A DNA stretch of 63,885 nucleotides, filler included, from an uncultured bacterium (GTDB lineage Bacteria > CAZSTA01): the NCBI GenBank assembly GCA_964609495.1. It is 4 parts of 4 records of this genome, joined end to end, with 100 filler letters (N's around TTAATTAATTAA, not from the genome) between each part and the next. Parts side by side here need not be neighbours in the genome. Positions count along the whole stretch, not along the records: positions 51,699 to 63,885 come from CAZSTA010000103.1; 3 more parts are not named here. One strand, 5' to 3'. Position numbers and translations under genes: made by a program. Shown in pieces: positions 6,666 to 63,885 of this stretch; the first letter of the stretch is position 1, and the number at the start of each line of letters is the position of its first letter. A model generated the notes under the pieces. It was not told where the DNA came from, ran no database searches, and was given only the letters and a program-made list of their open reading frames with translations.

Positions 6666-6668
6666 AAT

Positions 6669-7639: not shown

Positions 7640-7684
7640 TAAGAAAAAGATGCGACTGCCGAAACTTTGAATTCGGCAGTCGCA
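7640..7684 (-). terminator. Intrinsic terminator or mRNA-stabilising hairpin after the solute-binding gene
   Basis: 13-bp perfect stem TGCGACTGCCGAA/TTCGGCAGTCGCA followed on the minus strand by TCTTTTTCTT. Confidence 0.75.
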
Positions 7685-7694
7685 ATCTGTCGAT

Positions 7695-9011: not shown

Positions 9012-9156
9012 AAAATAAGCACCTCCATTTTATAGATTCTTAAAGCTTATTAACATCTAGGCTAGGATATATCCTATATTAGTCTCTTGACCACCTCCCT
9101 TCAGTCTCCCTCAACGCCTAGAAAAGAAATCGGGCATCACCTAATTTTCTTATCAA

Positions 9157-9185
9157 AGTATATCAGAAAATCGGGGTAGAGTCAA
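9157..9185 (-). promoter_or_regulatory. sigma70-type promoter of the ABC transporter operon
   Basis: TTGACT-17nt-TATACT with extended TGn on the minus strand. Confidence 0.7.
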
Positions 9186-9235
9186 GAGCGATTTTGATAA
9201 ATCTTAGCCTTTATTATCAGTCCCTTAGCGATAGT

Positions 9236-17195: not shown

Positions 17196-17295
17196 NNNNN
17201 NNNNNNNNNNNNNNNNNNNNNNNNNNNNNNNNNNNNNNNTTAATTAATTAANNNNNNNNNNNNNNNNNNNNNNNNNNNNNNNNNNNNNNNNNNNN
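17196..17295. other. Artificial contig linker
   Basis: 100 bp of N with a central TTAATTAATTAA (stops in all frames). Confidence 0.98.
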
Positions 17296-26630: not shown

Positions 26631-26976
26631 GGTCGGTTCCTCCAGAATGGTCTTTGAGTAGATAATCGGAGTATCATATTATTAGCTTTTCGCTAGGGGG
26701 TTCAAGACATAATTCCCCCCTCACCCTATCCCTCTCCCACGAGGGGAGAGGGAATATCCAGATAGGACTGCTCTTATTATTCCCCTCCCTCGATGGGAGG
26801 GGTTAGAGGAGGGTGTAAAGGAAACTTTCTAACCTTATATATTTTTGGAGGTGAAAGTTACCAGAACGCTTGAGTTTTGTTGCCGGCAAAAGTTTCCTTT
26901 ATTTAAGGTGGGTTTGAGTTCTAACAGGAGAAAAATCTTCATAGTCTAGGCAAAGACCAGAATGGAGGAACTGCCC
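26631..26976. mobile_element. Non-autonomous MITE-like element carrying the fullest copy of the repeat family
   Basis: Imperfect 32-bp terminal inverted repeats (26631-26662 and 26945-26976, 25/32 match) enclose repeat modules A, B and C (26700-26906); no ORF. Confidence 0.55.
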
Positions 26977-34402: not shown

Positions 34403-34502
34403 NNNNNNNNNNNNNNNNNNNNNNNNNNNNNNNNNNNNNNNNNNNNTTAATTAATTAANNNNNNNNNNNNNNNNNNNNNNNNNNNNNNNNNNNNNNNNNN
34501 NN
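34403..34502. other. Artificial contig linker
   Basis: N run with a central TTAATTAATTAA. Confidence 0.98.
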
Positions 34503-46188: not shown

Positions 46189-46306
46189 CACCCTCCCCTA
46201 ACTCCTCCCATCGAGGGAGGGGAAATAAAGAGATAAGCTCTATCTGGATGTTCCCTCTCCCCTCGTGGGAGAGGGATAGGGTGAGGGGGGATTTATATCT
46301 TCAATT
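46189..46306 (+). repeat. Repeat family modules B+A
   Basis: CCTCCCATCGAGGGAGG hairpin followed by CCCTCTCCCCTCGTGGGAGAGGG; reverse complement of 26700-26815. Confidence 0.88.
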
Positions 46307-46376: not shown

Positions 46377-49300
46377 ATGACTATTAGAGATAAAATAATA
46401 TTATCATTTATCCTCTTATTACTATTAATCGCCTCGGGTTGTGCCAGCCCTCAAGTGAAGAGGACAAATCCCGGAGAAGAGAAACCTCGAATGACTATAG
46501 AACAGCTTCGAGAAAGGATAGCCCTTGATCCAAGAGATGCTTCTGCTCGCTTTGAATTGGGAAAGCGTTTAGCTGAAAGAGGAAATTATCAAGAGGCGAT
46601 ATCTTTCCTAGAAACTGCTCACGAGCTAGGTTTATCTGGCGACGGTCTAGGGGATTGGCTGCGCCTGGTTAGAGCCAAGTTAGAGCTGATGAAGAACCAC
46701 TACGAATCCGATCCCTACTTCCAATTAGGAGATATCTATTATAATAGAGAGGATTATCCCAAAACTCTCGAAAATCTCCAGAAAGCTATCGAATTAGGAC
46801 AGAATGATGTAAAGACTTACAAATTACTGGGAATGACCTATTGGCAGCTTGGCGATTTTGATAAATCAGCCGAAGCCTTCAAATCTGCTTTGGATATCGA
46901 TTCGAATGATGGAGATGTCGCCAATTGGCTTGAATTCATCGAGGTTGAGATAGCTCTGAAGAAGAATCCTGACGATAAGGAAGCCTACTTCAAGTTAGGA
47001 AATATATACTACTATGATGAGAGCTATAATGAAGCTATCTCCGAATATAAGCGGGTTTTAGAGTATGATAGTCAGCATCAACAAGCAAGAAGAATGTTGG
47101 GAAAAGCTCAAAGAGCACTCGAAGGGGATGAATTGATAGATAAGGGCAATGTAGAATATGACGAAGCCGATTATGAGGAGGCTATAAAGCTGTATAAAAG
47201 GGCGGGAGATATATTCGAGGAGATAAGGAATAATAAGGCGCTGATCAGAAGTTCAGGAGGGGTAGGAAATGCCTACTATATGCTCAATAAATATCCCCAA
47301 GCTTTAGAATATTATAACCGAGCATTAAGAGCCGCCAGGAGAGCTAAATATAGAGAAGGGGAAGCCGATCAATTGAATAACCTTGGTAATGTTCACTACT
47401 CCTTGAGCAACTATGATGAGGCTAATAAATATCATCTAAAAGCTTTAAGTATATCCAGGCAAATAGGTTATCGGTGGGGAGAGTCAGATCAGCTAAGCAA
47501 CGTCGCTAGCATCTATGCCAGCCTAGGAAAGTATCCTTTAGCTCTAAAATACTATCAACAAGCATTGCAGATAGCCCAGGAAATAGAGGATCGCTATAGG
47601 GAGATCAATCGTCTGAGTGGATTAGGTTGGGTATATTATCGCCTCGCTGATTATTCCACCTCCATCGAATATCACAAGAGAGCTCTGAAATTAGCGGAGG
47701 CGATCGAGGATAGATATTCTCAGGCTAACAGCCTGAACGATCTAGGGAATATCTATTCCGACTTAGGCGATTACCCTCAATCCTTGGAGTATTATGAAAA
47801 AGGGCTTCAATTATCACAGGATATATCAGCTAAGGATATAGAGGCTAGTCTTCTTAATAACTTGGGCAACCTATACTCCGATCGGGGTGATTATACTCCA
47901 GCTTTGGATTGCTATAATCAAGCTATTGCGATAGCTCATAGGATAGGTGATAGAGGAGGAGAGGCTTTGTATCTAGGAAATATAGGGCTCTCCTATATGG
48001 AGCTGGGAGATTATGAAAAAGCCCTACAATATCAACAAGAGGCTTTGGAGATAGATAGAGAGACAGGAGCCAAGTTCTTAGAAGGAGCAGTTTTAGATAA
48101 CATCGGCCTCATTTACTATCTTCAAGGGAAGCTTGATCTCGCTAAGGATTATTTCGAGGGCTCGGTCAAGATACTTGACCAGCTAGGAAGCAAGAGGGAA
48201 TTCGCCTTTGCTTTGACCGACTTAGCGCAGATATACTACGAATTGAAGGATTATAAGAGGGCGTTGGAGCTCCATCAAGAGGCTTTAGCTACCAGTCAGG
48301 AGATAGGTAATAAGGTGAATGTTGCCAATGTGCTTAACCATTTGGGGGAGACCTATCAAGCTTTAGGTGATTTAGAGGATGCCCAAAAAAGTTATGAGGA
48401 AAGCTTAAATATCTGTAAAGAATTAGGTGTCTTGAGCGTTATGTGGCAGAGCCAAAGCAATTTAGGTATGCTTCAAGAATTGAAGGGCGATAAAGAGAAG
48501 GCTATCGCCTATTATAAAGAGGCGATAGACACTATAGAGAGCATTAGAGGGAGATTGAAGAGCAAGGAATTACAAGCTGGTTTTATGAAGGCGGAGGATA
48601 AGATCGATGTATATGAGAGGTTAATAAACCTAGCTATAGAGCTTGAATCTCCTGAGAAATGCTTGGAGTATCTAGAGAGAAGTAAATCGGAGGTAATAAA
48701 GGAGATATTCGCAGGATTAAAGCCAAAAATCGAGAATGAATATGCTAGAGAGAGATTCGAGCAGATAAGTGAATTAGAGGGACGAATAGAAGCTACAGAG
48801 AAACAATTGGCTCAAGCAACTTCGGAGGAGGAAATAGAAAATCTCACCCAAGTCTTAGCGAAAACTAAGGGAGAGGTCAATCAACTGATGCTGGAATTGG
48901 ATAATGAACATCCCGAAGTATATAACTTTCTAACCGTTCATTACACCACCTTTGATATTATTCAAGAGCAATTACCAGATAATACCCTGCTTATAGAATA
49001 TGGGCTCCTGGACGATTATTTCTTGATCTTCACGATCTCCAAGGATTCCATTGTGGCTAAATCGGTCAAGGTCTGCAAAGATGAGATAGATAATCTAGTC
49101 ATAGACTATAGAAGAGAACTACGTCGTCCCCTTCTAGGAAGCGAAGCTGGCTCAGAGGCGCCGATAGAGGAGTTATCTTCAAAGCTCTATGGATATTTAA
49201 TTCTTCCCATCGAGGAGGAAATAGAGAAGTTCGATACTATAACCATCGTTCCTTATGGTTCTCTCTATTATCTTCCCTTTCATGCCCTTCAGAGAAAACT

Positions 49301-50006
49301 CCCCTCAGGAGAGCTTCAATATCTTCTGGAGTGGAAGCGAGTAGCTTATCTTACTAGTTCAACCTTGATGGATCTTCTAAAGGGAGGTAGCTTAAGCAGA
49401 GGAATGAAGGAAAGCTTAATAGCCTTCGGGAATCCAGATGGGACCCTAAAATCTGCCTTAGAGGAAGTAGAAGCTCTAGGGAAGATAGTAAGCGAAGCTG
49501 AGATCTTTACTCTTGAGGATGCCACGAAGGATAAATTCTTAACTTATGCTAAGGATTATAATATAATCCACCTAGCTACTCACGGTTATTTAAAACCCAA
49601 TCCTAAAAATTCTTATCTTGTTTTAGCTCCTAAAGGGGAAGGAAATCTAACGGTATGGGAAATTATGGGGGAACTAACAGATGCTCTAAAAGATGAGAAT
49701 CAACTTGTAGTTCTCTCCGCGTGTCAGACAGCCTTGCAGGAAGGAAAGCAACTTCAAGGTAAGGAACTATTGAGCCTAGCTTCAGCTTTCACTAGGGCTG
49801 GTTCTCCAGCGCTAATAGCGACTTTATGGAGTGTAGATGACAAATCCACTAAGGAACTTATGCTCGATTTCTATGAGAATCTGAGAGATGGGAATCACGA
49901 TAAATTGGAGGCTTTGAGGCAAGCTCAAATATCTCTACTGGGGAGTGGCAAATTCGACCATCCTTTCTTCTGGGCTCCATTCATACTTATCGGAGACTGG
50001 AGATAG
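46377..50006 (+). CDS. Lipoprotein TPR-repeat CHAT (caspase-like) protease
   Basis: Lipobox IASG-C and many TPRs. CHAT motifs IVPYGSLYYLPFHAL, HLATHG, VVLSACQT, IATLWSVDD and HPFFWAPF. Confidence 0.92.
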   Translation: MTIRDKIILSFILLLLLIASGCASPQVKRTNPGEEKPRMTIEQLRERIALDPRDASARFELGKRLAERGNYQEAISFLETAHELGLSGDGLGDWLRLVRAKLELMKNHYESDPYFQLGDIYYNREDYPKTLENLQKAIELGQNDVKTYKLLGMTYWQLGDFDKSAEAFKSALDIDSNDGDVANWLEFIEVEIALKKNPDDKEAYFKLGNIYYYDESYNEAISEYKRVLEYDSQHQQARRMLGKAQRALEGDELIDKGNVEYDEADYEEAIKLYKRAGDIFEEIRNNKALIRSSGGVGNAYYMLNKYPQALEYYNRALRAARRAKYREGEADQLNNLGNVHYSLSNYDEANKYHLKALSISRQIGYRWGESDQLSNVASIYASLGKYPLALKYYQQALQIAQEIEDRYREINRLSGLGWVYYRLADYSTSIEYHKRALKLAEAIEDRYSQANSLNDLGNIYSDLGDYPQSLEYYEKGLQLSQDISAKDIEASLLNNLGNLYSDRGDYTPALDCYNQAIAIAHRIGDRGGEALYLGNIGLSYMELGDYEKALQYQQEALEIDRETGAKFLEGAVLDNIGLIYYLQGKLDLAKDYFEGSVKILDQLGSKREFAFALTDLAQIYYELKDYKRALELHQEALATSQEIGNKVNVANVLNHLGETYQALGDLEDAQKSYEESLNICKELGVLSVMWQSQSNLGMLQELKGDKEKAIAYYKEAIDTIESIRGRLKSKELQAGFMKAEDKIDVYERLINLAIELESPEKCLEYLERSKSEVIKEIFAGLKPKIENEYARERFEQISELEGRIEATEKQLAQATSEEEIENLTQVLAKTKGEVNQLMLELDNEHPEVYNFLTVHYTTFDIIQEQLPDNTLLIEYGLLDDYFLIFTISKDSIVAKSVKVCKDEIDNLVIDYRRELRRPLLGSEAGSEAPIEELSSKLYGYLILPIEEEIEKFDTITIVPYGSLYYLPFHALQRKLPSGELQYLLEWKRVAYLTSSTLMDLLKGGSLSRGMKESLIAFGNPDGTLKSALEEVEALGKIVSEAEIFTLEDATKDKFLTYAKDYNIIHLATHGYLKPNPKNSYLVLAPKGEGNLTVWEIMGELTDALKDENQLVVLSACQTALQEGKQLQGKELLSLASAFTRAGSPALIATLWSVDDKSTKELMLDFYENLRDGNHDKLEALRQAQISLLGSGKFDHPFFWAPFILIGDWR

Positions 50007-51598: not shown

Positions 51599-51698
51599 NN
51601 NNNNNNNNNNNNNNNNNNNNNNNNNNNNNNNNNNNNNNNNNNTTAATTAATTAANNNNNNNNNNNNNNNNNNNNNNNNNNNNNNNNNNNNNNNNNNNN
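51599..51698. other. Artificial contig linker
   Basis: N run with a central TTAATTAATTAA. Confidence 0.98.
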
Positions 51699-51765
51699 TT
51701 ATCTCAATGTCCCCTCTCCCCTCGTGGGAGAGGGATAGGGTGAGGGGGAATTATATCTTGAACTC
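51699..51765 (+). repeat. Repeat family module A at the contig start
   Basis: CCCTCTCCCCTCGTGGGAGAGGGATAGGGTGAGGGGGAATTATATCTTGAACTC. Confidence 0.88.
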
Positions 51766-51837
51766 ACTAGCGAATATTTGAAGCTACTTAACATATTCTC
51801 AGCACGAAATTTTATATGCATCCCTTAGCTTAGTTAC

Positions 51838-51866
51838 TTGACAGAAGACTTTTTTTATGGTATACT
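51838..51866 (+). promoter_or_regulatory. sigma70 promoter of the secDF run
   Basis: TTGACA-17nt-TATACT with extended TGn. Confidence 0.8.
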
Positions 51867-51983
51867 CTTTATTGTTAAAGAGATTAATTATAACTGAAGA
51901 TTTGTAAATAACTACTCTAGTTTTTTACAATATGAGCTAAATTTGGTAATCGCGATATCTTGAGGAGCCTAAGGAGGAATTTA

Positions 51984-54146
51984 ATGCAAAGAAACATTCA
52001 GTTGCAGATTCTAGCTATAGTTATATTGATAGGATTAGCGATCTATTTCGCCTTTCCTTTAGGGGAAAAGATAAAGTTAGGATTGGATCTAAAAGGTGGT
52101 ATGCACCTCGTCTTAGAGGCTCAAGGTGAATTTGAGGATGAGGAAGCTAGAACTATAGCTATGAATCATGTTATAAAGATTATCCGCAACCGCGTCGATG
52201 AATTGGGAGTGGCTGAACCGGTCATTCAAAGATCAGGGCCAAATAGAATTTTGGTTCAACTACCTGGTATAACTGATATTGAGCGAGCTCGTAGATTAAT
52301 CGGGGAAACAGCTTTGTTGGAGTTTAGGATAGTAAAAAATATCATCGAGAGGGTGAATGAAGAGGGAGAGAAAGAGATAGAATATGACCTGGGTGAAACC
52401 CTCCTTACTGGTGATAAGTTGAAGTTGGCTAAGGTAGGATATGATCAGCTTGGTAAACCTAAAGTTGATATACAACTCACAGATGAAGGTGGCGAATTAT
52501 TTGAAAAGATCACGGGAGATAATGTAGGGCGACAATTAGCCATAGTGCTAGATGGAAAGGTGGAATCAGCTCCGGTTATTAAGACGAAGATCAGTGGTGG
52601 TAGAGCAGAGATAACCGGAATCCGTAGCCTTCAGGAGGCTAAGGATTTAGCCCTAGTTCTACGTACCGGTGCTTTACCTGTGGAGATGGATATAATAGAG
52701 GAGAGAACGATTGGCCCTACCTTGGGACGAGACTCTATAAGTAGTGGAGTAAGAGCCGCGATCATCGGAGCGATATTGGTTTTGATTTTTATGGTTATTT
52801 ACTACCGATTCTATGGATTGGCCGCCGATCTAGCCTTGATAATCGCGGGTATATTGATATTAGGTGCCTTAGCCGCTACTAAAGCCACTCTGACTCTGCC
52901 CGGTATCGCTGGTCTAGCCCTAACTATCGGGATGGCTGTTGATGCTAACGTCATAATCTTTGAGAGGATCAAGGAGGAGTTGAGGAGTGGAAAGACGACT
53001 AGAGCCGCTATGCACTCTGGTCATAGCAAAGCGTTCTGGACCATCTTCGATGCCAATGTCACAACTCTGCTGGCCGCGGCCGTTCTATTCCAATTTGGGA
53101 CTGGACCGGTAAGAGGCTTTGCCGTAACTTTGAGTATCGGTGTCGTAGTCAGTATGTTTACCGCTCTGGTAGTCACGAGATTGATTCTCATCTTATTCTC
53201 TATGTTTAAGGAGTTAGAATCCAAGGCTCTGCTTGGAGCTACTAGTATAAATTTCATGGGTAAGATCAGAACTGCGGCTATTGTATCGATAATTATCGTA
53301 GCAATAGGATTGGCATCGTTCTTCTTCCGGGGCTTCGCTTATGGGATCGACTTTTCAGGAGGAAACTTGCTCCAACTTCGTTTTGATAAGGCGGTGACTG
53401 TGGGTGATGTAAGGAAGGTGTTGGGCGAGTTTGGTTTAGAAAAGAGCGTTGTTCAGCGATTCGGTGGCGAGAGGGAAATCATTATCCGCAGTGAAGAACT
53501 GAAGCAGGAAGATATCGAGGGGGTAACTAGCGCTCTAAATGAGCAAATCGGTAATTCTGAAGTTCTCAGAGTAGAGACGGTAGGACCGACTATAGGTAGA
53601 GAATTACAGAAACAGTCTTTATACGCGGTTTTAGTATCGATGGCTTTTATGTTGGCTTATATCGCCTTCCGCTTCGATTTCAAGTTCGGAGTCGGAGCCA
53701 TTGTGGCTTTAATCCATGATGTGATCATAGTGCTGGTGATATTTTCCCTCTTTCGTCTGGAGATAAGCGCTCCGATAATCGCTATCCTTCTTACTATAGT
53801 AGGATATTCGGTTAACGATACGATTATTATCTCCGATAGAATAAGGGAAAATCTAAGGTTGATGCGTCGTAAACCTATCGTTGAGGTTACTAACCTGAGC
53901 CTTAACCAGACTCTAGCCAGAACGATAAATACTGTTCTTACCACTATGCTGCCGACTTTGTCCTTGCTCTTCCTAGGAGGTAAGATCCTGCAAAACTTCG
54001 CTTTAGCTTTCGCTATAGGTCTCATCACCGGAACTTATTCCTCGATCTATGTAGCTAGCGCAATCGTCGTCTGGTGGAGAAATGTCTCCGAAAGGAGGAG
54101 AAAACTCTATAAAGAAGGCCCGCAGGTGAGAGCCACAAGTAGATAG
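51984..54146 (+). CDS. secDF: Fused protein translocase subunit SecDF
   Basis: LGLDLKGG, GVAEP, GMAVDANV..FERI.EE, GIDFSGG and GYSVNDTI...DRIREN motifs. ATG 51984 lies behind AGGAGG. Confidence 0.96.
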   Translation: MQRNIQLQILAIVILIGLAIYFAFPLGEKIKLGLDLKGGMHLVLEAQGEFEDEEARTIAMNHVIKIIRNRVDELGVAEPVIQRSGPNRILVQLPGITDIERARRLIGETALLEFRIVKNIIERVNEEGEKEIEYDLGETLLTGDKLKLAKVGYDQLGKPKVDIQLTDEGGELFEKITGDNVGRQLAIVLDGKVESAPVIKTKISGGRAEITGIRSLQEAKDLALVLRTGALPVEMDIIEERTIGPTLGRDSISSGVRAAIIGAILVLIFMVIYYRFYGLAADLALIIAGILILGALAATKATLTLPGIAGLALTIGMAVDANVIIFERIKEELRSGKTTRAAMHSGHSKAFWTIFDANVTTLLAAAVLFQFGTGPVRGFAVTLSIGVVVSMFTALVVTRLILILFSMFKELESKALLGATSINFMGKIRTAAIVSIIIVAIGLASFFFRGFAYGIDFSGGNLLQLRFDKAVTVGDVRKVLGEFGLEKSVVQRFGGEREIIIRSEELKQEDIEGVTSALNEQIGNSEVLRVETVGPTIGRELQKQSLYAVLVSMAFMLAYIAFRFDFKFGVGAIVALIHDVIIVLVIFSLFRLEISAPIIAILLTIVGYSVNDTIIISDRIRENLRLMRRKPIVEVTNLSLNQTLARTINTVLTTMLPTLSLLFLGGKILQNFALAFAIGLITGTYSSIYVASAIVVWWRNVSERRRKLYKEGPQVRATSR

Positions 54147-54181
54147 GGTTCAATAGGGTTTTCAATTACGAGGAGGGGATA

Positions 54182-54562
54182 ATGCAGACTTTTGTTATTA
54201 TCATAGTCCTGTTGTTTATGATCTTAGCCTCGGTAATCGCCGCTCAAAATGCAGGACAGGATGTTACGCTTCAATTTCTTCTGAAGGATTGGTCCGTAAC
54301 TATCAACGCTTTACCTCTGATCCTAGTCTCCATGCTTTTAGGGGTTATCCTTACCGCTGTTTTAGGAATCTCAAGTTGGATCAAGCAAGAGGGTCGGGTT
54401 CGAAGACTTAACTCCCGCATCAGGGAATTGGAAAAGGAATTAGCAGAAGCGGTAAGTAGTAGTAGGAGAGTTATTGGAGGTGAATTGCCTGCCTCTGATT
54501 CTCATCAACCTATCGCTCCTCCTATCCCTGAGGAGGATAGAAGAATAGAAGAGGTAAAATGA
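54182..54562 (+). CDS. LapA (DUF1049) family membrane protein
   Basis: TM-AQN..V.L.F-TM followed by a coiled coil. Confidence 0.7.
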   Translation: MQTFVIIIVLLFMILASVIAAQNAGQDVTLQFLLKDWSVTINALPLILVSMLLGVILTAVLGISSWIKQEGRVRRLNSRIRELEKELAEAVSSSRRVIGGELPASDSHQPIAPPIPEEDRRIEEVK

Positions 54563-57193
54563 TTGATCGCTATTTCCAAAATTTGGCGGCATCGAGGTAA
54601 GGAAAGGGAGGATATAGAACGCGAATTCATCGCTGAATTAGGTATCTCTCCGCTTCTAGCCCGTTTGTTGATTAATCGGGGGGTCGATGATCTACAAAAA
54701 GCCAAATTATTTATGAACCCCGGTTTAGACCAATTACATCCTCCCCGAATGATGAAGGGGATAGAGGAGGCTTCCGAGAGGATCAAGTATGGGCTGGCTA
54801 ATAGAGAGAGGATCGTTATTTATGGAGATTATGATGTTGATGGATTGACCAGCACCGCTCTTTTGATGTCAGCTTTAAGAAACTTGGGAGGTTCGCCTCG
54901 TTGCTATATCCCCAATCGGCTGAGTGAGGGATATGGATTGACGGAGGATTCCTTAAATAAGATTCGCGAAGATGGAGTCGATCTATTGATCACGGTCGAT
55001 TGTGGCATAACTGCCACTAAAGAGAGTCATTTGGCCAAGAAGCTGGGCATAGATCTTATCGTTATCGATCATCATCGTCCTAAAGAGGAACTTCCGCAAG
55101 CGGTGAGCTTAATAGATCCTAAGCAAGAGGATTGCAATTATCCATTCTCCGAACTTACCGGGGTAGCCTTGACGTTTAAGCTAGCCCAGAGGTTATTTGA
55201 AGCTTATGGAAAGGATTCCTCTCTCGCCTATAGTTATCTAGACTTGGTAGCTTTAGGAACTATCGCTGATATTGCTCCTCTGATCAGTGAGAATAGGATA
55301 CTTATAAAGGAGGGATTGAAAGCTCTAAGTAATACTCAGCGTCCTGGCTTAAGAGCTTTGATATCATCTGCTGGTCTGGAGGGGAGGGAGTTGAGTGTGG
55401 GGCAGGTGGGGTATATCATCGCTCCCAGGATTAATGCGGCGGGTAGGCTTTCTGACCCTCGATCTGCATTGAAATTACTGCTCTCCGATTCCCCGGAGGA
55501 AGCTCAAAGGTTGGCCCTTAAACTCAATTATGAGAATGCTGAGAGACAGAGATTGGAGAAGAAGATATTAGAAGAGGCTTTAGCTTTGTGTGAGGAGATC
55601 GATTTTGATAAAGAGCGAGTTTTGGTTCTCGCTCATCCCGATTGGCATTTTGGAGTTATCGGGATCGTAGCTTCTCGGATAGTAGAGAGGCTATACCGCC
55701 CCACGATATTGATCTCCCTGGAGAATGGCCGAGGAAGAGGATCGGCGAGAAGTATCCCCAATTTCTCGATCTTCAAGGCTTTAGTTGAGTGTAGTTCTTA
55801 TTTGATCAAATTCGGAGGACATACTTATGCGGCTGGGCTTGAGATCGAAAGCGATAAGATAGCTGACTTCAGGGAGAAGATAAATCTTATCGCCTCCCAG
55901 TGGTTAGAGGAGAAGGATCTAATACCCAGCTTGAATATAGATGCCAAATTAAGCCTAGAGCAGGTAAATTTGGAATTGGCGGAGGAACTCGAACAATTAG
56001 CTCCCTATGGAAATGGCAATCCAAAACCGATCTTTGCCAGCTACGATCTGGTAGCTACGGATTGTCAACAAATGGGAAGAGGAGGGGATCATTTAAGGAT
56101 CCGGTTCAGGGAGGATAACTGGGTAAGAGAAGGGATTGGCTTTCGCATGGGAGACAAATTGGAAGCTTTTCTATCTCCCGCTTGGCCTAGGATAGATATA
56201 GCTTATACCTTAGATGCGGAGAGGAGAGAGGGAGGGAAACGATGTAGCTTAAAGTTCACGGACCTTAAGATCAAGGAGGCGGAACTCGATAACGAATCTT
56301 TCCTAGAGGGGTTGTTTCAAAGAGCAAGGGACATTCTAAGGATAAGCTCTTACCGAAGATCAGAGCTAGATATTATTTATGGTAGATTTAAGGAGGCCTT
56401 CAGCGTCGATCATAAAATCTCTCGGAGTTCTCCCTTACCGATAATAGATAAACGTTCGATAGCAGATAAGAGAGGAGTCTTGAGAGAACTCATATCTTCT
56501 TCCTCTGAAAGGACGCTAATTTATCTGCTTCGTGTCGAGGATGCGATCAACTTAGCCGATATTTTAAGGTGGGAGTTCCCTGAGAAGAGAAATTCCATAG
56601 CCTATTATCATCTGGGGCTTGCTCGTTCTACTCAATATCGAATAAAGGACATGTTCTCAAGGGGAGATATAAGGATTATATCGCTCTCAACAGGATGTAG
56701 GGAGATGGAGCTAGAGGAGAGCAGTGAGAGGGTTATTTTTTATTCCCTGGCTCCTGAACTCGCATGGTGGCAGGAAGAGGGGAGAGAACTGAGTAGAAGA
56801 AGGGAAATCCCGATAGGGCTTCTCTTCGGGGAAGAAGATATTCATTACAACGAAAAGGTTTGGGATATAATAGCCCCTGAGCTAGATACTCTACGAAGTT
56901 TATATAAAGTTCTTAATTCGAGACAAAGAACATCGATCGGCTTATCCTCTTCTGATATAGATATTATAACTCGTCAGGTGAGTTTATCGGCGTATACTGT
57001 ATCGGTAGGACTGGACATTTTCAGAGAATTAAAGTTAATTAAGCAAGAAAGAGAAGGATATATATCTTTAGTCCCTGTATCTCATAAGGTGGACATTTTC
57101 TCTTCGAATATCTTTTCGGAAAGACAAAGTATCAAAACAGCCGGTAGAGAATGGGAGAGACGTCTCCTTCGAACTCCTGAGGATGAACTATAA
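54563..57193 (+). CDS. recJ: ssDNA exonuclease RecJ with a long C-terminal extension
   Basis: YGDYDVDG, TVDCG, DHH, LGTIAD, PRINAAGR, GSARS, GGH..AAG and PYG.GNP motifs. Confidence 0.95.
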   Translation: MIAISKIWRHRGKEREDIEREFIAELGISPLLARLLINRGVDDLQKAKLFMNPGLDQLHPPRMMKGIEEASERIKYGLANRERIVIYGDYDVDGLTSTALLMSALRNLGGSPRCYIPNRLSEGYGLTEDSLNKIREDGVDLLITVDCGITATKESHLAKKLGIDLIVIDHHRPKEELPQAVSLIDPKQEDCNYPFSELTGVALTFKLAQRLFEAYGKDSSLAYSYLDLVALGTIADIAPLISENRILIKEGLKALSNTQRPGLRALISSAGLEGRELSVGQVGYIIAPRINAAGRLSDPRSALKLLLSDSPEEAQRLALKLNYENAERQRLEKKILEEALALCEEIDFDKERVLVLAHPDWHFGVIGIVASRIVERLYRPTILISLENGRGRGSARSIPNFSIFKALVECSSYLIKFGGHTYAAGLEIESDKIADFREKINLIASQWLEEKDLIPSLNIDAKLSLEQVNLELAEELEQLAPYGNGNPKPIFASYDLVATDCQQMGRGGDHLRIRFREDNWVREGIGFRMGDKLEAFLSPAWPRIDIAYTLDAERREGGKRCSLKFTDLKIKEAELDNESFLEGLFQRARDILRISSYRRSELDIIYGRFKEAFSVDHKISRSSPLPIIDKRSIADKRGVLRELISSSSERTLIYLLRVEDAINLADILRWEFPEKRNSIAYYHLGLARSTQYRIKDMFSRGDIRIISLSTGCREMELEESSERVIFYSLAPELAWWQEEGRELSRRREIPIGLLFGEEDIHYNEKVWDIIAPELDTLRSLYKVLNSRQRTSIGLSSSDIDIITRQVSLSAYTVSVGLDIFRELKLIKQEREGYISLVPVSHKVDIFSSNIFSERQSIKTAGREWERRLLRTPEDEL

Positions 57194-57244
57194 TTTTTCA
57201 ATTAATTTATCTAACGGACCTTAATCAAGAGAGGAGATGATCCT

Positions 57245-57616
57245 GTGGCGCAAACCAGAACCGAGCAGATGATCGCTATGTTGAAGGATTTGCAGGCGAG
57301 CACACCTGATATTGAAGCGGCGGCTGTAGTTAGTGTTGATGGCTTGATGATGGCTTCGGCCCTCCCCGCCGACGTTGAGGAGGAGAGAATCGCGGCTATG
57401 TCAGCAGCTATGCTCAGCCTGGGAGAGAGAACCGCTCAGGAATTGAGGCGGGGTGTTCTTGAGCAAGTATTTGTGAAAGGTGAAGATGGCTATATATTGC
57501 TGATGGGTGCGGGGGAAGAGGCAGTCCTAACCACCTTAGCGAGGAAGGAGGCGAAGTTAGGGCTCATATTTTTGGATATGAGGAGAACCGCGAGAGAGCT
57601 GGGAAGAATAGTTTGA
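57245..57616 (+). CDS. Roadblock/LC7 (MglB-like) protein
   Basis: AAVVSVDGL..AS, AAMSAA.LSLGER...EL..G.LEQ and AKLGLIFLDM motifs. Confidence 0.93.
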   Translation: MAQTRTEQMIAMLKDLQASTPDIEAAAVVSVDGLMMASALPADVEEERIAAMSAAMLSLGERTAQELRRGVLEQVFVKGEDGYILLMGAGEEAVLTTLARKEAKLGLIFLDMRRTARELGRIV

Positions 57617-57646
57617 TACAATCTATCCTGGTAAGGGGGTTTATCT

Positions 57647-58162
57647 ATGTGGTTGAAGATGTTCGGCCTAGCTCGGCATCTGAGATTGGATTCAGATCAA
57701 GGAGCTCTTAAAGTCAAGGACATACGATTTTTACTGATTCCTGGAGAAGTATTCCCTCAACTTTATATGGGGATGGAAGATCTCCTGGGGAGAGCAGCCG
57801 GCCCTCTTCTTTATAATGCTGGCAAAAGTGTGGGTGGCAAATATATGGAATTGATACCTGTACTTGGTATTGATGTTAGCACAGAGCGAGGTATAGTTCA
57901 GGCTCTGGAGCAGTTCAGCACTCTCTCAGGGATGGGGAGAACTGAGGTAACAGAGATAAGTTTAGCTGAGAAGAGGATAGTGATAAGAATCTATGGACTT
58001 ATTACTGCCTTAGGGATAAAGTCGAAGAGACCTGTCTGTCATTTAGTCAGGGGGGTATTTGCCAAATCACTGGAGACGGTGACGGGAGAGAGAGCGGTAT
58101 GCGAGGAGACGAAGTGTGTTGCTGTAGGGGATGAATATTGCGAGTTTGTACTACATACCTAA
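57647..58162 (+). CDS. Stand-alone V4R (XylR_N/V4R-type ligand-binding) protein
   Basis: LYNAGK..G, SGMG, PVCH..RG.F and EETKCVAVGDEYCEF motifs. Confidence 0.88.
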   Translation: MWLKMFGLARHLRLDSDQGALKVKDIRFLLIPGEVFPQLYMGMEDLLGRAAGPLLYNAGKSVGGKYMELIPVLGIDVSTERGIVQALEQFSTLSGMGRTEVTEISLAEKRIVIRIYGLITALGIKSKRPVCHLVRGVFAKSLETVTGERAVCEETKCVAVGDEYCEFVLHT

Positions 58163-58250
58163 TAGTTCTTTCCGCTTATTCTTGGAAGTGGGGTGGGGAG
58201 ATTCCGATACTTTATTTATCAGAAATTGTGCCAGTTTCAAGGAGAATTAT

Positions 58251-58347
58251 TTAAATAAAGGAAACTTTTGCAGTCAATAAAACTAAAGGTGAAAAAGTTT
58301 CCTTTACACTCTCCCCTAACCCCTCCCCCTCAAGGGAGGGGGAATAA
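58251..58347 (+). repeat. Repeat family modules C+B inserted inside the GTPase module
   Basis: Reverse-complement match to 26776-26906 with an internal deletion; TAAAGGAAACTTTT/AAAAGTTTCCTTTA inverted repeat. Confidence 0.8.
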
Positions 58348-58381
58348 ATATGATTTCCCTCGAAGGAGAGGTGGAGTAAAT

Positions 58382-59155
58382 ATGGAGCTAGCTGGAGATC
58401 TAAGCACTCATAAATTTTCTCTTCTTTTAACTTCCTTAGGCGAGGAGAAGACAACTGGAACTCTAAGGATCATAAGCGGAGATAAGAAATGGACTGTTTG
58501 CTTAAGAGAGGGTTCTATCGTCTTCGCAGGTTCAGGGAGGGATAGGCATTTATCAGATTTACTAGAATCAGCAAATAAATTGACTCGGCAACAAGTTAAG
58601 AGAGCGCTTCAGGCACAGTTGAGAGAACCTACAAAGCACTTTGGAGATATCCTAGTTGAGATGGGGATAATGGATGAGGAAGAGTTGATATCTTCTGTAA
58701 GAGAGCAGATAAATGAGACAATTTATGATCTTATGGATTTGGAGGAAGGAGAATATAAATTCGAGGAGGGTAGGTTGCCCTTTGAGGAGGATATGATAGT
58801 TTCGCTAGATGTTGACCTTCTGATCGAGGAGAAGGCTAAGAGGACCGAGGAGTTGGGAGTTATAAATCAGTGGCTTCCCTCCTCCGAATTAGTTTTACAG
58901 TTGTCTCTCAATCCTGAGAGAGATGTTCGGGATATCCATTTGAGCTCTCGAGAGTGGGGGGTTCTATCCTTAGTGGATGGAGAGAAAAGCATAGCCGAGA
59001 TAGTAGATTTGAGCTATCTCGGTGAGTTCGAGGTTTTCAGGATCCTATATAAGTTCTTCTCGATGGGGTTATTAGAGAGAGCTGATGAGGAGGAGTCCTT
59101 GCCGATAACTAAAGATGTGATCTTAAGAATTATAGATAGGATAAGTGATCTTTAG
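58382..59155 (+). CDS. DUF4388 (PATAN-like) protein with MshEN-like insert and C-terminal winged helix
   Basis: L.GDL, TGTLRI and GEYKFE motifs; FGDILVEMG; EW.VLSLVDG..SIAEI. ATG 58382 lies behind AGGAGAGGTGGAG. Confidence 0.8.
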   Translation: MELAGDLSTHKFSLLLTSLGEEKTTGTLRIISGDKKWTVCLREGSIVFAGSGRDRHLSDLLESANKLTRQQVKRALQAQLREPTKHFGDILVEMGIMDEEELISSVREQINETIYDLMDLEEGEYKFEEGRLPFEEDMIVSLDVDLLIEEKAKRTEELGVINQWLPSSELVLQLSLNPERDVRDIHLSSREWGVLSLVDGEKSIAEIVDLSYLGEFEVFRILYKFFSMGLLERADEEESLPITKDVILRIIDRISDL

Positions 59156-59166
59156 AGAGGGATGAT

Positions 59167-59685
59167 ATGCTAGCGGTAAAAATAGTAGTCACGGGCGCTT
59201 TCAATGCGGGAAAAACCGAATTTATTCAAACAATAAGCGATATCGAGGTAACAGCAGGGGAGAGAAGAATAACGGAGGCCACAAAGGTTATAGGGAAAGA
59301 AGTGGCAATGGACTTCGGAAGGATAAGTATTTCTGATGATTTAGTTCTCTACTTGTTTGGGACCCCAGGGCAAAAGAGTTTCGATTTTATGTGGGATATT
59401 CTCTCTCGGGAGATGTTAGGTTTCATAATTATCGTGGATAGCACTCAACCAGGGACATTTCAAGAGACGAAGGAGGTGATAGATTATTTCGAGAAATTAT
59501 CTGGAGTTCCTTTTGTCATTGCGGCTAATAAGCGAGATATGCCCGAGGCAGTCCCTTTAGAGGAACTCCGTCAAAAGTTAGATTTAGATGATAGGGTGGA
59601 GATCTTGTCTTGTGTGGCTTTCGATAAGGAGAGCGTAAAAAAGGTGATTTTGAAGTTATTGTATCTAGTATTGGAGAATATGTAG
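59167..59685 (+). CDS. Small Ras-like GTPase (MglA group / conservon CvnD-like)
   Basis: G1 GAFNAGKT, VAMDFG, G3 FGTPGQ and G4 ANKRD. Confidence 0.92.
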   Translation: MLAVKIVVTGAFNAGKTEFIQTISDIEVTAGERRITEATKVIGKEVAMDFGRISISDDLVLYLFGTPGQKSFDFMWDILSREMLGFIIIVDSTQPGTFQETKEVIDYFEKLSGVPFVIAANKRDMPEAVPLEELRQKLDLDDRVEILSCVAFDKESVKKVILKLLYLVLENM

Positions 59686-59699
59686 AGTTATATCTGCGG

Positions 59700-59736
59700 G
59701 TCAAGAAAACCCCGAGGCTTGTCTCGGGGAGTGTCA
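59700..59736 (+). repeat. Hairpin resembling an IS200/IS605-family end
   Basis: GTCAAGAAAA-CCCCGAG-GCTTGT-CTCGGGG-AGTGTCA. Confidence 0.5.
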
Positions 59737-59789
59737 CCCTGGGGGGAATTTATTCAGTATGATATCAATTATAGAGGAGAGATAAATAG

Positions 59790-60164
59790 ATGCCTTTAAG
59801 CAAAGCTGAGAGGATGGAGAATATCCTCAGAACTCTGCGAAGTGCTGCTCCAGGCATTCTGGCTGATGCGGTAGTTAGTAGGAGTGATGGATTGATCATA
59901 GCCTCTGCCTTTCCCGCGGATGAGCAAGGGGAGAGGATGGCTGCTATGTCATCCGCTATGCTAAAGGTTGGGGAGAGAGCCGCCCAAGAGTTAGAGGTGG
60001 GTAGTCTGGGACAGATGTTCTTGAGAGGAAAGAACGCTTCCTTATTCCTGGTAGAAGCTGGAGAAAACGCTGTTCTTACCGCTTTAGCTAGTAAAAGTGC
60101 TCAACCAGGTTTAGTTCTTCTCCGCATGAGGAGAGCAGCAGCCGAGATCAGGGAGATAATCTGA
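59790..60164 (+). CDS. Second roadblock/LC7 (MglB-like) protein
   Basis: Alignable to 57245-57616 (DGLIIASA.PAD, AAMSSAML..GER.AQEL, AVLT.LA). Confidence 0.9.
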   Translation: MPLSKAERMENILRTLRSAAPGILADAVVSRSDGLIIASAFPADEQGERMAAMSSAMLKVGERAAQELEVGSLGQMFLRGKNASLFLVEAGENAVLTALASKSAQPGLVLLRMRRAAAEIREII

Positions 60165-60365
60165 GATGTTTTCTCTTATCCTTCCCTTGATTATCAAGGA
60201 TAATAGTTGGTCTCTAGTTTATGTTTTGTAAGTTTTCTACTTTAAATAAAAGGGAAGGTAGAGAAGGAAAAACGTTACTATTATAGAGATTGAGTGTGAT
60301 CTTCTTGCGGTTGTTTAGGCTTTCCTATTGTGGTGTCTTTCACCAGATATAGATGAGAGGATATC

Positions 60366-63179
60366 TTGCCCACTATCGATGATTTAAGAAGAAGGGTATT
60401 ACGTGGATTAGCTCGTGTCACCTATCAGCATAGTTCATTGGTGTTGCTAGGTGCTGGTCTTATTACTTTAATATTAGGGATCGTAGCTCTGAGGTTAGAG
60501 GCAAAGGTTGATATACCCTCACTACTCGATGATTCGGAGGTGGTGAGACGCTTCGATTATGTTTCGAAGAACTTTGGTAGCGCTAATAGCCTCTTCATTC
60601 TGGTTGAGAGCGAGAAAGGTGATATAAAATCTGCTGAGGAATACCTCGAAGCTTTGGCAGATAGATTAGAAGAATTGAAGGAAGAGGAAGCCGGAGGATG
60701 GGTCAAGTTCGTCGATTATAAAATTGATGTTGATTTCTTAAAGGAGCACTCTCTCTTCTATCTTTCCCAAGAGGCTTTAGAGGATATAAGGGAGAGATTG
60801 CTTTCTAATAAGAAAGAGATAGAATCTCTTCTTTCCCGCTTCGGCTTAGTCAGCTTATACCAAGGGGTTAATGATAGATTAGAGAGGAGAGTAGCTCAAG
60901 GAGAGGTATTCGTTGCGGAAGAGGAGGTGGTGAATGAACTAGGGGCGCTACTCCAACTGGTAAAGGTAACTGAAGGATGGGTAAATAGCGATAGGGAGGA
61001 CCGAGACGCAGTAGAGAAGGCGATCACTGATTTTCTGATAGGCGGTCAAGAGGTCGAGGGAACAGAGATGCTCGCCAGCAAGTATTATCTATCGAAGGAT
61101 AAAACCGCTCTCTTGATGATGGTTCAACCCGCCTACCCTACCACCGATGCCAAATATAACGATCCCTTTATCGCCAAAGTGAGAGAGCAGGTGGAGGAAG
61201 TTCATAAAAACTTTCCTTCCCTTGAAATAGGGTTAACTGGAGATCCCGCCTTTATGTCGGAGTGGATGGGGGCTCTTTGGAGGGATGTGAAGTTCATATC
61301 CTTGATAGCCCTCTTAGGTGTCGTGCTGATAGTGACTCTCTCCTATAGCAAGTTATCTTATCCCTTATTCGCCGCTATTCCTCTCATTATGAGCGCTATA
61401 TGTACCCTCGGCTTCACTGCAATGTTCATCGGATATTTGACTATCTTCACCGCGGTATCCGCCTCGATTATCTTTGGAGTTGGTATAGACTCCTCGATAC
61501 ATCTGATCTCCCGCTATGAGGAGGAGAGGAAGAAGGGGTGGGGGGTTCGAGAGGCAATAGCGATAACTATTACTAGCACTGGACAAAGTGTAGTCACGGG
61601 AGGATTGACAGCCTCCGTTGCCTTCTTTGTCCTGATGATAATGGGTTTCAAGGGTCTATCCGAGGTAGGATTTGTCGCTGGATGCGGGATACTGACCTGC
61701 TTAGTATTTATGCTCTTTCTCATTCCTTCCCTAATATCTATAAAGGAAAGAGCCAGTGAGGCGAAACTACGGGGACATACTAGAGGGAAGAATCCTCTAA
61801 GTATAGGCCCTAGAGCGATAAGTAAAGCTATGGATTTTATAGCCCAGGTGGTAACCACTAACTTCAAGGCTTGTCTGATCGCGGGCTTAATCATAACTAT
61901 CCTCCTCAGCTTCCAATTAAGGAATGTGAAATTCAGCTATAGTTGGTTAGATCTTCAAGCTAGTGGTGGTGATGTCATCAAGTTGCTATATAAGGTTATA
62001 GATAAGTATGGGAGGTCCTTGGATTATGGGGTAGTGCTTGCTGATAACTTAGAGGAGGCGCGTCGATTGACGGATAAGCTCAAAGCTCAATCGACTATCG
62101 CCAAGGTCGAATCGATCACCAACTACTTGCCCGAAGATCAAGATGAGAAGAAGGAGATAATCGCCAAGCTGGGAGAAGAAATAGGGTGGCTTAAACCGAA
62201 TCCCCAAAGTTCTGAGGAGAAGTTAAATGTCGATCTGCTGGCGGAACAGCTCAAACGGCTAGGGGTCAATATCGAGGAGCTCTCGATCTCCGCTTTCCTC
62301 GGGGGATTAGATCGGATAGCAGACAAGAGCGAGGAATTATCCTCTAACCTCGATGAACTCATACAAGATATAAACTCTCGTGACAAAGATAAAGTTAAGG
62401 TTAGTTTAGATTCTCTCCAAAGGGAAATGGACGACTTGATCCATCAGATCTTTGAGGAGATGAATGTGATGACCAGGGCTCAGGAAGTTACGCTTGATAA
62501 CCTTCCCTTCAATATTAAAGCGATGTTCACGGAAAAGAGCGATAAAGAAGTTGGAAATGGTAAATATATAATCTTAGCCTATCCAGCTGAGAATATCTGG
62601 AACAAGGAGTATTTATTTAAACATCTGGATGAGCTGAAGGGCGTATCCGCTAAATCTACGGGGATCGGAGTTCTATTCGCTCAAATTATGAAGGAGATGA
62701 GGCAAAATCTAAGGAATACTAGTGTTGCCGCTTTGCTTGTCGTTGCTATGTTGGTATTTGCGGATTATGGGATCTTAAGAACCGCTGCTTTGGCTATGGT
62801 CCCGGTATTGACAGGGATCCTGTGGTTATTAGGGACTATGGGGCTTATAGGAATGAAATTCAATGCGGTGAATATGGCCGCTATACCGATGATCATAGGA
62901 ACGGGCGCCGCTTATGGAGTGCATGTCATCCATCGCTATCGTTCGGAGGGGAGAGGGGGAATTGTGCTTGCTCTTTCAAGTTGTGGTAAGGCTGTTCTTC
63001 TCTCAGCCTTTACTACTATGGCTGGTTTTGGAAGTATAGCTTTAGCCTCCCATCAGGGGTTGGCTAGTATAGGTAAGATACTAACTATGGGAGTTTTCTT
63101 TTGTTTGTTAATCTCCCTTACCATCTTACCAGCTATTATATCACTCCTAGAGTGGCGAGGAGAGAAAAACTTGAGTTAA
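60366..63179 (+). CDS. MMPL/RND family lipid transporter (HpnN-like)
   Basis: Two TM repeats with large loops; GLTG.P, GVGID..IHL..RY.EE and LSAFTTMAGFG..ALASH.GL.S.G motifs. Confidence 0.85.
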   Translation: MPTIDDLRRRVLRGLARVTYQHSSLVLLGAGLITLILGIVALRLEAKVDIPSLLDDSEVVRRFDYVSKNFGSANSLFILVESEKGDIKSAEEYLEALADRLEELKEEEAGGWVKFVDYKIDVDFLKEHSLFYLSQEALEDIRERLLSNKKEIESLLSRFGLVSLYQGVNDRLERRVAQGEVFVAEEEVVNELGALLQLVKVTEGWVNSDREDRDAVEKAITDFLIGGQEVEGTEMLASKYYLSKDKTALLMMVQPAYPTTDAKYNDPFIAKVREQVEEVHKNFPSLEIGLTGDPAFMSEWMGALWRDVKFISLIALLGVVLIVTLSYSKLSYPLFAAIPLIMSAICTLGFTAMFIGYLTIFTAVSASIIFGVGIDSSIHLISRYEEERKKGWGVREAIAITITSTGQSVVTGGLTASVAFFVLMIMGFKGLSEVGFVAGCGILTCLVFMLFLIPSLISIKERASEAKLRGHTRGKNPLSIGPRAISKAMDFIAQVVTTNFKACLIAGLIITILLSFQLRNVKFSYSWLDLQASGGDVIKLLYKVIDKYGRSLDYGVVLADNLEEARRLTDKLKAQSTIAKVESITNYLPEDQDEKKEIIAKLGEEIGWLKPNPQSSEEKLNVDLLAEQLKRLGVNIEELSISAFLGGLDRIADKSEELSSNLDELIQDINSRDKDKVKVSLDSLQREMDDLIHQIFEEMNVMTRAQEVTLDNLPFNIKAMFTEKSDKEVGNGKYIILAYPAENIWNKEYLFKHLDELKGVSAKSTGIGVLFAQIMKEMRQNLRNTSVAALLVVAMLVFADYGILRTAALAMVPVLTGILWLLGTMGLIGMKFNAVNMAAIPMIIGTGAAYGVHVIHRYRSEGRGGIVLALSSCGKAVLLSAFTTMAGFGSIALASHQGLASIGKILTMGVFFCLLISLTILPAIISLLEWRGEKNLS

Positions 63180-63209
63180 GTAGTTTCGAATAGGAGGGAT
63201 AGGGGGAAG

Positions 63210-63885
63210 ATGAGACTGGGAAAGTATGTATGGCAGATGTCAGAAGTTGATAAGGTGAGAATATTGATAATAATTATAAGCGTTCTATTGCTATTATCAA
63301 GTCTCTTAATATTTTTCTTCTACCAAGCGGGTCAGGAGGCGGGAGGAACGAGGGTAAGCGTTATATGGCTTTCCTCTCTCTTGGCGCTTATTTTAGCTAT
63401 CTCTCTATACGGTGGGCTTACAGGGGGGTTACTTGCTGCAGTAGTGATAATCTTCGTCTCAGGCGGAGTTACAACTATTATGAAAAGCTCACTTAGTGTA
63501 TTCTGGTTGTTATGTTGTGCTTGGACGGGGATTTTCGGAGGGCTTCTTAGTGATATATTGCGCAGGTGGTATAGGGAGAGCCAGCGACAATTCGCCGAGA
63601 TAGGATCTCTTTTAAGGGAGGATAAAGCCACGGGGTTAGATAGCCCTCAGCATTTCGATCTCGAGCTCAGAGCCTCTACCAGAAGGGCCTTACTCTATAG
63701 GCGAGATCTCGCTTTGATGATGGTTAAGATCGATGATCTTGCCTGGATGAAGGATCGTTATGGAGAGGAGACCCAACAGTATATACTTCAGGAGGTCGCC
63801 GAGATTCTCTCCGGAGGTTTGAGGGGCGCGGATGTTATCGCTAGATATAGCCAGGATGTTTTTGGGGCTTTGTTGCCTAAGACCC
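63210..63885 (+). CDS. Membrane protein with a degenerate GGDEF domain, 3'-truncated by the window end
   Basis: Manual translation gives about 4 TM segments, then DKATGL, KIDDL, DRYG and RGADVIARYSQDVF. Not in the ORF track. Confidence 0.8.
   Translation, partial: MRLGKYVWQMSEVDKVRILIIIISVLLLLSSLLIFFFYQAGQEAGGTRVSVIWLSSLLALILAISLYGGLTGGLLAAVVIIFVSGGVTTIMKSSLSVFWLLCCAWTGIFGGLLSDILRRWYRESQRQFAEIGSLLREDKATGLDSPQHFDLELRASTRRALLYRRDLALMMVKIDDLAWMKDRYGEETQQYILQEVAEILSGGLRGADVIARYSQDVFGALLPKT

Follow-up and report, generated by a model that had tools for sequence, protein, structure and literature searches.

A V4R protein as a candidate partner of an MglA-family GTPase, roadblock and PATAN module in an uncultured bacterium

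To our knowledge, the Group 2-5 MglA GTPases are among the commonest Ras-like switches in bacteria, and we know of no input to them outside the actinobacterial conservon. Here we examined five genes at positions 57245-60164 of a 63,885-nucleotide (nt) stretch of DNA (the window) from an uncultured bacterium of the lineage CAZSTA01 (GenBank assembly GCA_964609495.1). They encode two roadblock proteins (RB1 and RB2), a stand-alone V4R protein, a PATAN/DUF4388 protein and an MglA-family GTPase. The proximity of MglA Group 1 and Group 5 genes, and of MglB genes, to PATAN genes has been published (Wuichet & Søgaard-Andersen, Genome Biol Evol 2015, PMC4316618), in a text that credits the PATAN-MglB link to Makarova et al. 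2006. Groups 2-5 are defined there by a GTPGQ G3 motif without an arginine finger, and the G2 threonines are conserved in them. The original prediction that the locus is an undescribed system therefore stands only in part: the core of GTPase, PATAN and roadblock is already catalogued (PMC4316618), whereas the V4R link was not found in print. V4R has 0 mentions in the main text of PMC4316618, whose neighbourhood lists sit in its supplementary Table S2. A literature search turned up no paper that describes V4R among the neighbours of MglA and roadblock genes, and the study of V4R by Podar et al. 2008 makes no mention of roadblock, GTPase or operons. What is new here, as supported by sequence comparison, is the V4R protein as a putative partner of the MglA-family/roadblock/PATAN module, the core itself being known.

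Four pieces make up the window, with joints at 17196-17295, 34403-34502 and 51599-51698 that each consist of two 44-N runs with 12 letters between them. Because of this composition, gene neighbourhood is not readable across the joints. The last piece (51699-63885; 12,187 nt) carries the module, and the genes before 51.6 kb are no neighbours of it. The five module genes start 51 nt past recJ with all frames intact. Open reading frames (ORFs) and Pfam matches agreed with the predicted set of five co-oriented genes and with the predicted parts, which are the following.

57245-57616, + strand: RB1, a roadblock/LC7 protein of the CvnB/MglB kind, 123 amino acids (aa), GTG start (Robl_LC7, 8.4e-19)
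57647-58162, + strand: stand-alone V4R protein, 171 aa (PF02830, 2.1e-17)
58382-59155, + strand: PATAN/DUF4388 protein, 257 aa (PF14332, 2.7e-21; start set by homologue alignment)
59167-59685, + strand: MglA-family small GTPase, 172 aa (Pfam Ras, Arf and ATP_bind_1)
59790-60164, + strand: RB2, the second roadblock protein, 124 aa (Robl_LC7, 4.6e-14)

Judged by its sequence, the GTPase is a member of the MglA family, of the GTPGQ class (Groups 2-5), and closest to Chloroflexota members. It carries the motifs GAFNAGKT (G1), LFGTPGQ (G3) and NKRD (G4), and Pfam Ras, Arf and ATP_bind_1 all scored above their cut-offs. Homologues number in the thousands. The best non-self match was 63% identical, the named ones came mostly from Chloroflexota/Anaerolineae, and identity to the Chloroflexota homologues was 58-63%. 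LFGTPGQ, including the catalytic Gln, was invariant in an alignment of 21 sequences that included the window GTPase. The locus resembles MglA Groups 2-5, especially Group 5, as described in PMC4316618: the GTPase is single-domain (its 172 aa fall under the 240-aa family limit) and GTPGQ-type with no arginine finger, PATAN is adjacent, and roadblock genes lie within four genes, RB2 being the next gene and RB1 three genes upstream. Chloroflexi are among the phyla carrying these groups. It differs from them in that a V4R protein is a regular member of the window and Chloroflexota modules, and in that the window GTPase lacks the G2 threonines that Groups 2-5, and its own homologous family, have kept.

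The conservon (CvnA-CvnB-CvnC-CvnD, with a Group 2 MglA) is also similar in combining a GTPGQ-class GTPase, a roadblock protein and a third protein bearing a winged helix. When the RB1 family profile was compared with the PDB, it fitted CvnB5 (3leq, 1.8e-16) and Rv3364c (1.4e-13) far better than MglB, for which matches were weak (about 6e-4 to 1e-2); the strongest matches were 7f8m_A (1.9e-37) and 9jue_D (1.8e-27). In contrast to the conservon, the window contig has PATAN and V4R instead of a CvnA-type kinase. Domain scans of the 12.2-kb contig detected neither a CvnA-like kinase nor a DUF742 protein, and no kinase domain in any of its genes, so the predicted absence of a CvnA-like sensor held. 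The five proteins gave no DUF742 match at E up to 0.01, nor did the PATAN C-terminus at E up to 1, where Pfam returned only HTH_27 at 0.11, although a distant winged-helix kinship is possible. The G4 motif is NKRD rather than the NxFD of Group 2 (PMC4316618). The MglA/MglB polarity switch of Myxococcus xanthus and Thermus thermophilus (Group 1) likewise consists of a small GTPase regulated by a roadblock dimer, and Thermus MglA (3t12, 7.9e-9) was the best solved relative of the window GTPase by sequence. However, G3 in the window is GTPGQ and not TVPGQ, G2/switch I contains no intrinsic arginine (Arg-Thr), and the window roadblocks are more CvnB-like than MglB-like. PADLOC gave no match for the five module proteins.

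The linkage of V4R to this kind of module was evident in Chloroflexota. We scanned 80 loci around Chloroflexota homologues of the GTPase with purpose-built hidden Markov models (HMMs). Where a locus had 800 nt or more of DNA before the GTPase, PATAN was directly upstream of it in 74 of 75 cases. Among the 69 loci with enough downstream DNA, 46 had a V4R gene on the same strand no more than 2.6 kb downstream of the GTPase; a V4R gene was present anywhere in 52 of the 80. Pfam scored the V4R genes of one locus (L080) at 44 and 34 bits, both above the cut-off of 31. The usual order was PATAN, GTPase, alpha/beta hydrolase, V4R and a hexapeptide-repeat protein, with REC-GGDEF-like genes nearby, and contiguous PATAN-GTPase-RB-V4R operons occurred in three loci (L015, L040 and L051). 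In five of five whole genomes, RB1-type genes (63-68% identical to that of the window) were present in at least two copies, one of which was followed at once by V4R. The roadblock that seems missing at GTPase loci sits elsewhere in the genome.

In a sample of 121 Chloroflexota genomes, tables for the RB1 type, the GTPase and linked V4R were compared by eye. The RB1 type and the GTPase had identical distributions, each being present in the same 26 genomes and in no others. Linked-type V4R was found in 23 of these 26 and in none of the 95 others (0/95). In 12 of the 23 genomes with both, a roadblock gene was followed by V4R within about 210 nt. All 12 had at least two RB1-type genes, while the 11 genomes with a single RB1 copy showed no such adjacency. 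A lack of V4R conservation beside the module in other genomes would have counted against the original prediction, and it was not what we found, given the 46 loci and 12 genomes above and the V4R-roadblock fusion proteins described below. Since the same families are kept together in other genomes, a chance grouping is excluded. The link of V4R to the module is thus supported by genome comparison rather than by biochemistry.

In two of the Chloroflexota loci (L075 and L080, about 6560-9410), an alpha/beta hydrolase gene stood between the GTPase and V4R, and a 425-aa hexapeptide-repeat (LbH) protein followed V4R. REC-GGDEF-like response regulators flanked the cluster. The hydrolase, the LbH protein and these regulators may also belong to the system, and the window has none of them.

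The window V4R protein scored 63.4 bits with PF02830 (cut-off 31), and its structure was modelled with a predicted local distance difference test (pLDDT) score of 93. The whole 171-aa model superposed on the sensor domains of PoxR, MopR and DmpR with template modelling (TM) scores of 0.79-0.82, a root-mean-square deviation of about 3 Å and an identity of about 20-22%. TM scores to Bet3/TRAPPC3, including chains in TRAPP-Rab complexes, were 0.6-0.67. The model agrees with the predicted likeness of V4R to XylR/DmpR-type sensors and to Bet3. C131, E154, C157 and C165 were invariant in 26 family members, and we take these Cys/Glu/Cys/Cys columns to be equivalent to the zinc ligands of PoxR. The protein thus shares its sensor fold, and presumably these columns, with the phenol-responsive sigma-54 activators PoxR, MopR and DmpR. 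In contrast to them, it stands alone with no AAA+ or DNA-binding output, and its partner would instead be a roadblock protein. Its nearest non-self relative among 1.8 billion representatives was only 35% identical, and a word-index protein search returned only the window's own fragment. An NCBIfam scan indicated similarities to BchJ and MsvR, and a ParA-linked V4R has been described (bioRxiv 10.64898/2026.10.19.760177).

Of the two roadblock proteins, RB1 belongs to a highly conserved type (the RB1 type), with 65-72% identity to the Chloroflexota copies. RB2 is a divergent paralogue of RB1 (51% identity, E 1e-37) and was placed on a long branch beside it in the roadblock tree, which does not settle whether RB2 corresponds to the Chloroflexota "orphan" copy. 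A complex prediction for RB1 (alignment A4) and V4R (alignment A2) gave an interaction prediction score from aligned errors (ipSAE) of 0.08 in both runs, which were made without controls and weigh neither for nor against a contact.

The PATAN protein scored 76.3 bits with PF14332 (cut-off 25). Its ORF opens at TTG 58268, but the most likely start is ATG 58382, since in an alignment with 21 homologues their beginning, MALKGNL..., aligns with MELAGDL... of the window, and a GGAGAGG ribosome-binding site precedes this ATG. The AlphaFold model (mean pLDDT 82.8) showed a β-rich core interrupted by helices at residues 58-119, a winged helix at about 166-240 and a conserved C-terminal helix. For the insert, the NCBIfam model NF053729, an MshE-related cyclic di-GMP (c-di-GMP) motif, scored 34.1 bits, below its cut-off of 38. 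Foldseek found local matches to MshE and PilF domains with c-di-GMP, over 54-56 residues that were about 30% identical, and nothing at E up to 0.001 for the whole model. The family profile matched PilF (4.5e-6), PilB (1.5e-3) and a MarR winged helix (3.2e-6), and the winged helix gave structural matches with Z up to 9.1 in a wide VIA-align search, which covered mainly residues 168-242. Taken together, the motif model, though below its cut-off, the family profile and the structural matches agree with the predicted DUF4388 protein with an MshEN-like insert and a winged helix. In the c-di-GMP motif as we presume it to read, the first Arg is replaced by His in the window and by Glu in the Chloroflexota homologues.

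These observations suggest that the five genes form one cytoplasmic signalling module around the MglA-family GTPase, with V4R as its sensor partner, a reading to which we give an even chance of being correct. By analogy with MglB acting on MglA and, as is thought, CvnB acting on CvnD, a roadblock dimer would set the nucleotide state of the GTPase. This dimer may be an RB1:RB2 heterodimer, in which RB1 would face V4R and RB2 would face the GTPase. V4R would bind a small hydrophobic ligand in a PoxR-like, zinc-braced pocket and pass its state to the roadblock partner. The active GTPase might then engage PATAN as an adaptor or effector to another target. A precedent for such a target is offered by the type IV pilus ATPases of cyanobacteria, since PilB1, a pilus ATPase of Synechocystis, is a binding partner of PATAN response regulators (bioRxiv 10.1101/2021.06.11.447907).

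Several observations weigh against this proposal, some of them within Chloroflexota. A roadblock gene lay within 6 kb of the GTPase in only 11 of the 80 loci, and RB and V4R were not adjacent in 11 of the 23 sampled genomes that have both. Moreover, the Chloroflexota counts are inflated by shared descent, which confounds co-occurrence within a single phylum. Other points concern the window itself. Its PATAN protein was only 23-30% identical to the Chloroflexota partners. In the V4R tree, the window protein grouped with stand-alone V4R proteins of about 170 aa, outside the Chloroflexota clade linked to roadblock and GTPase (about 210 aa), and was split from this clade by a 100/100 branch of length 2.86. 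A BLASTP alignment with the L080 copy covered 44 residues only. For the window's own V4R lineage, 79 non-self metagenome loci were found with a narrow V4R alignment (A3). Only 3 of the 79 had a roadblock gene nearby, as judged with a narrow roadblock HMM that may miss distant roadblocks, and none had PATAN (0/79).

The window GTPase also lacks the switch-I (G2) threonines. It reads GKE-VAMDFG where ..TTVAMDF was found in 119 of 119 non-self top matches, and TT preceded VAMDF in every GTPase ORF of the scanned loci except one, a fragment (80 of 81). At this site, contigs from other runs (X2, 59214-59642; X4, 59016-60002) showed no difference and no gap. The deletion is real, because these independent contigs match without an insertion or deletion. 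Further changes at positions conserved to at least 90% were P11A, R71S, W129V and P148S. With its switch-I threonines gone, this GTPase may cycle slowly or fail to cycle altogether. Given the loss of TT and the divergent PATAN protein, the local module may work differently or be degenerating.

The spacing of the genes leaves their co-transcription uncertain as well. With the PATAN start taken as 58382, the gaps within the module are 30, 219, 11 and 104 nt, and for this reason a single operon is not assured. The prediction that V4R lies inside the operon held as regards co-orientation; as regards a single operon, the 219-nt repeat-bearing gap between V4R and PATAN leaves it in doubt. The intergenic elements are the following.

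58256-58344, no strand: repeated hairpin element in the V4R-PATAN gap, limits approximate (folding, contig depth)
59709-59729, + strand: GC-rich hairpin CCCCGAG...CTCGGGG in the 104-nt GTPase-RB2 gap (sequence)
24-46, 26730-26752, 26782-26802, 46253-46275, 51711-51734 and 58320-58342, intergenic: GC-rich CCCTCTCCC...GGGAGAGGG hairpins

Of 200 shuffles of the 219-nt gap, none folded as well as the gap itself (z = -3.5). Contigs from four metagenome runs reached a depth of 15-92 across 58254-58367, compared with about 2-5 in the flanks, and many contigs left the window sequence at 58256, 58305 and 58344. The element in this gap is a multi-copy repeat. It contains a GC-rich hairpin of the CCCTC...GAGGG type that is also found at 5 other sites of the window, and some of these CCCTCTCCC...GGGAGAGGG hairpins lie within longer repeats of 58-75 nt. 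The copy at 58320 falls within a stretch of 4- to 20-fold excess contig depth in the four runs. The hairpin family looks like a dispersed element of the repetitive extragenic palindrome (REP) kind. Because of the multi-copy element in the gap, co-transcription of V4R with PATAN and the GTPase is not assured, a further point on the opposing side. The repeat may split the module into three transcription units (RB1-V4R, PATAN-GTPase and RB2), or it may merely sit inside an operon. The 104-nt GTPase-RB2 gap as a whole was no stabler than its shuffles (z = -0.76), and its hairpin has no T-run behind it on the + strand. Rfam gave no match over 57000-60500 at E up to 1.

One alternative is a local juxtaposition of RB1-V4R, PATAN-GTPase and RB2 as independent units, in which V4R has an unrelated job such as binding a hydrophobic cofactor or metabolite. 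The V4R protein lies outside the linked Chloroflexota clade, 76 of the 79 loci of its lineage are without a roadblock, and the mobile-looking repeat is located exactly between V4R and PATAN. V4R proteins also serve many other contexts, as the BchJ and MsvR similarities and the ParA-linked V4R illustrate. Nevertheless, we consider this juxtaposition unlikely. The same four families meet repeatedly in Chloroflexota in several gene orders, and RB1 lies 30 nt upstream of V4R, in the order of the conserved RB-V4R pair. Roadblock linkage was also found within the V4R lineage of the window. In one of its loci (L161), a roadblock gene is followed 13 nt on by V4R. On an AT-rich metagenome contig (L138, 1243-5151), less than 4 kb of DNA encodes V4R and a GTPGQ GTPase together with three roadblocks and another Ras-like GTPase, the latter with a weak Gtr1/RagA match (1.5e-4). 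In a third locus (L167, 39-1085), V4R domains are fused to a C-terminal roadblock domain in one protein. Both Pfam domains of this recurrent V4R-V4R-Robl_LC7 fusion were found in 4 of 12 matches, down to 48% identity, and hmmscan confirmed two V4R domains and Robl_LC7 in three proteins (P0271, P0209 and P0140). The fusion proteins (L167, P0271, P0272, P0209 and P0140) are 386-484 aa long, and one member of a fusion cluster is named as from a Candidatus Altiarchaeales archaeon; such fusions are seen in some archaea. Roadblock linkage is thus present in several V4R lineages. In the window, a V4R of another lineage seems to have taken over the place next to RB1 that the usual V4R would occupy; alternatively, it stands there by coincidence. 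A tree of the window-type lineage left the window V4R unplaced.

The fusions also bear on a different role for V4R, in which it would be a structural subunit and, together with roadblock dimers, form a TRAPP-like platform acting as exchange factor for the GTPase. The TM scores to Bet3/TRAPPC3 reflect the Bet3 fold of V4R, and the roadblock fold is longin-like. Were the V4R-V4R-roadblock fusions to dimerise through their roadblock domains, a central roadblock pair would be flanked by V4R pairs, in an arrangement similar to that of Bet3-family and longin subunits in the TRAPP core. The recurrence of RB-V4R adjacency in several V4R lineages would fit this role too. However, the best structural matches of V4R were the ligand sensors PoxR and MopR (TM about 0.8) and its zinc-site-type columns are invariant, and roadblock and longin folds are related yet distinct (PMC10933270). 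A purely structural V4R therefore appears decidedly improbable. The locus shares with the TRAPP core, the exchange factor for Rab1/Ypt1, a Bet3-fold protein, longin/roadblock-type proteins and a small GTPase, and with Ragulator-Rag it shares two roadblock paralogues, as in the LAMTOR pairs. The analogy is one of parts only, with no sequence-level membership and no membrane anchor. For the Asgard strain MK-D1, a 2024 study reports that GTPase genes do not as a rule share operons with genes for roadblock, longin or TRAPPC3 proteins (PMC10933270).

A further account, which we regard as very improbable, takes the GTPase for a degenerate pseudo-switch, a constitutive scaffold or part of a decaying module, with the roadblocks and V4R acting mainly elsewhere; it draws on the confirmed TT deletion, the four further substitutions and the unusual divergence of PATAN and RB2, but all five frames are intact, G1, G3 with its catalytic Gln and G4 are kept, RB1 is strongly conserved (about 70% identity), and the identical sequence persists in runs dated 2019 and 2025.

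The remaining genes of the last piece are SecDF and LapA-domain protein genes, recJ, an MMPL/HpnN-like RND (resistance-nodulation-division) transporter gene and a truncated gene for a membrane GGDEF protein. Those closest to the module, and two features on other pieces, are the following.

54563-57193: recJ (TIGR00644, 1.5e-164)
60366-63179: MMPL/HpnN-like RND transporter, after the module (TIGR03480, 8.6e-109, below its cut-off)
63210-63884: membrane GGDEF protein, truncated where the contig ends
17298-17483: two copies of a 93-nt sequence in tandem (82% alike), where the second piece starts
46377-50006: 1209-aa TPR-rich protein with a C-terminal CHAT protease-like domain, on another piece

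RecJ is 876 aa long, and the recJ equivalog model spans residues 29-563 only. Its C-terminal extension of about 300 aa gave a weak ssDNA-exonuc_C match (5.2e-4), below the cut-off. The RND transporter and GGDEF genes were not kept beside the module in the Chloroflexota loci inspected. The tandem copies are probably a repeat in a coding region.

Beyond the known core, the window brings all partners together at one site, with two roadblock paralogues; it also has a V4R of a different lineage in the roadblock-adjacent slot and a GTPase without G2. The fusion proteins are a further addition. On a broader proposal, V4R proteins and roadblock dimers would make up a complex, widespread in prokaryotes, that regulates MglA-type GTPases. 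It would be a counterpart and possibly a forerunner of Bet3 plus longin in TRAPP, in which a ligand pocket would couple a small hydrophobic molecule to the GTPase state. We hold this to be rather unlikely. If it were true, the window, the Chloroflexota operons, the archaeal-looking contig L138 and the V4R-V4R-roadblock fusions would represent a single ancient partnership in four different forms. V4R is a proposed ancestor of the TRAPP subunit Bet3. If V4R does work with roadblock proteins and a small GTPase in prokaryotes, this would bear on the origin of eukaryotic GTPase-regulator complexes. As for the family itself, a sensor-type V4R partner, if it is one, would give kinase-less GTPase modules a candidate input.

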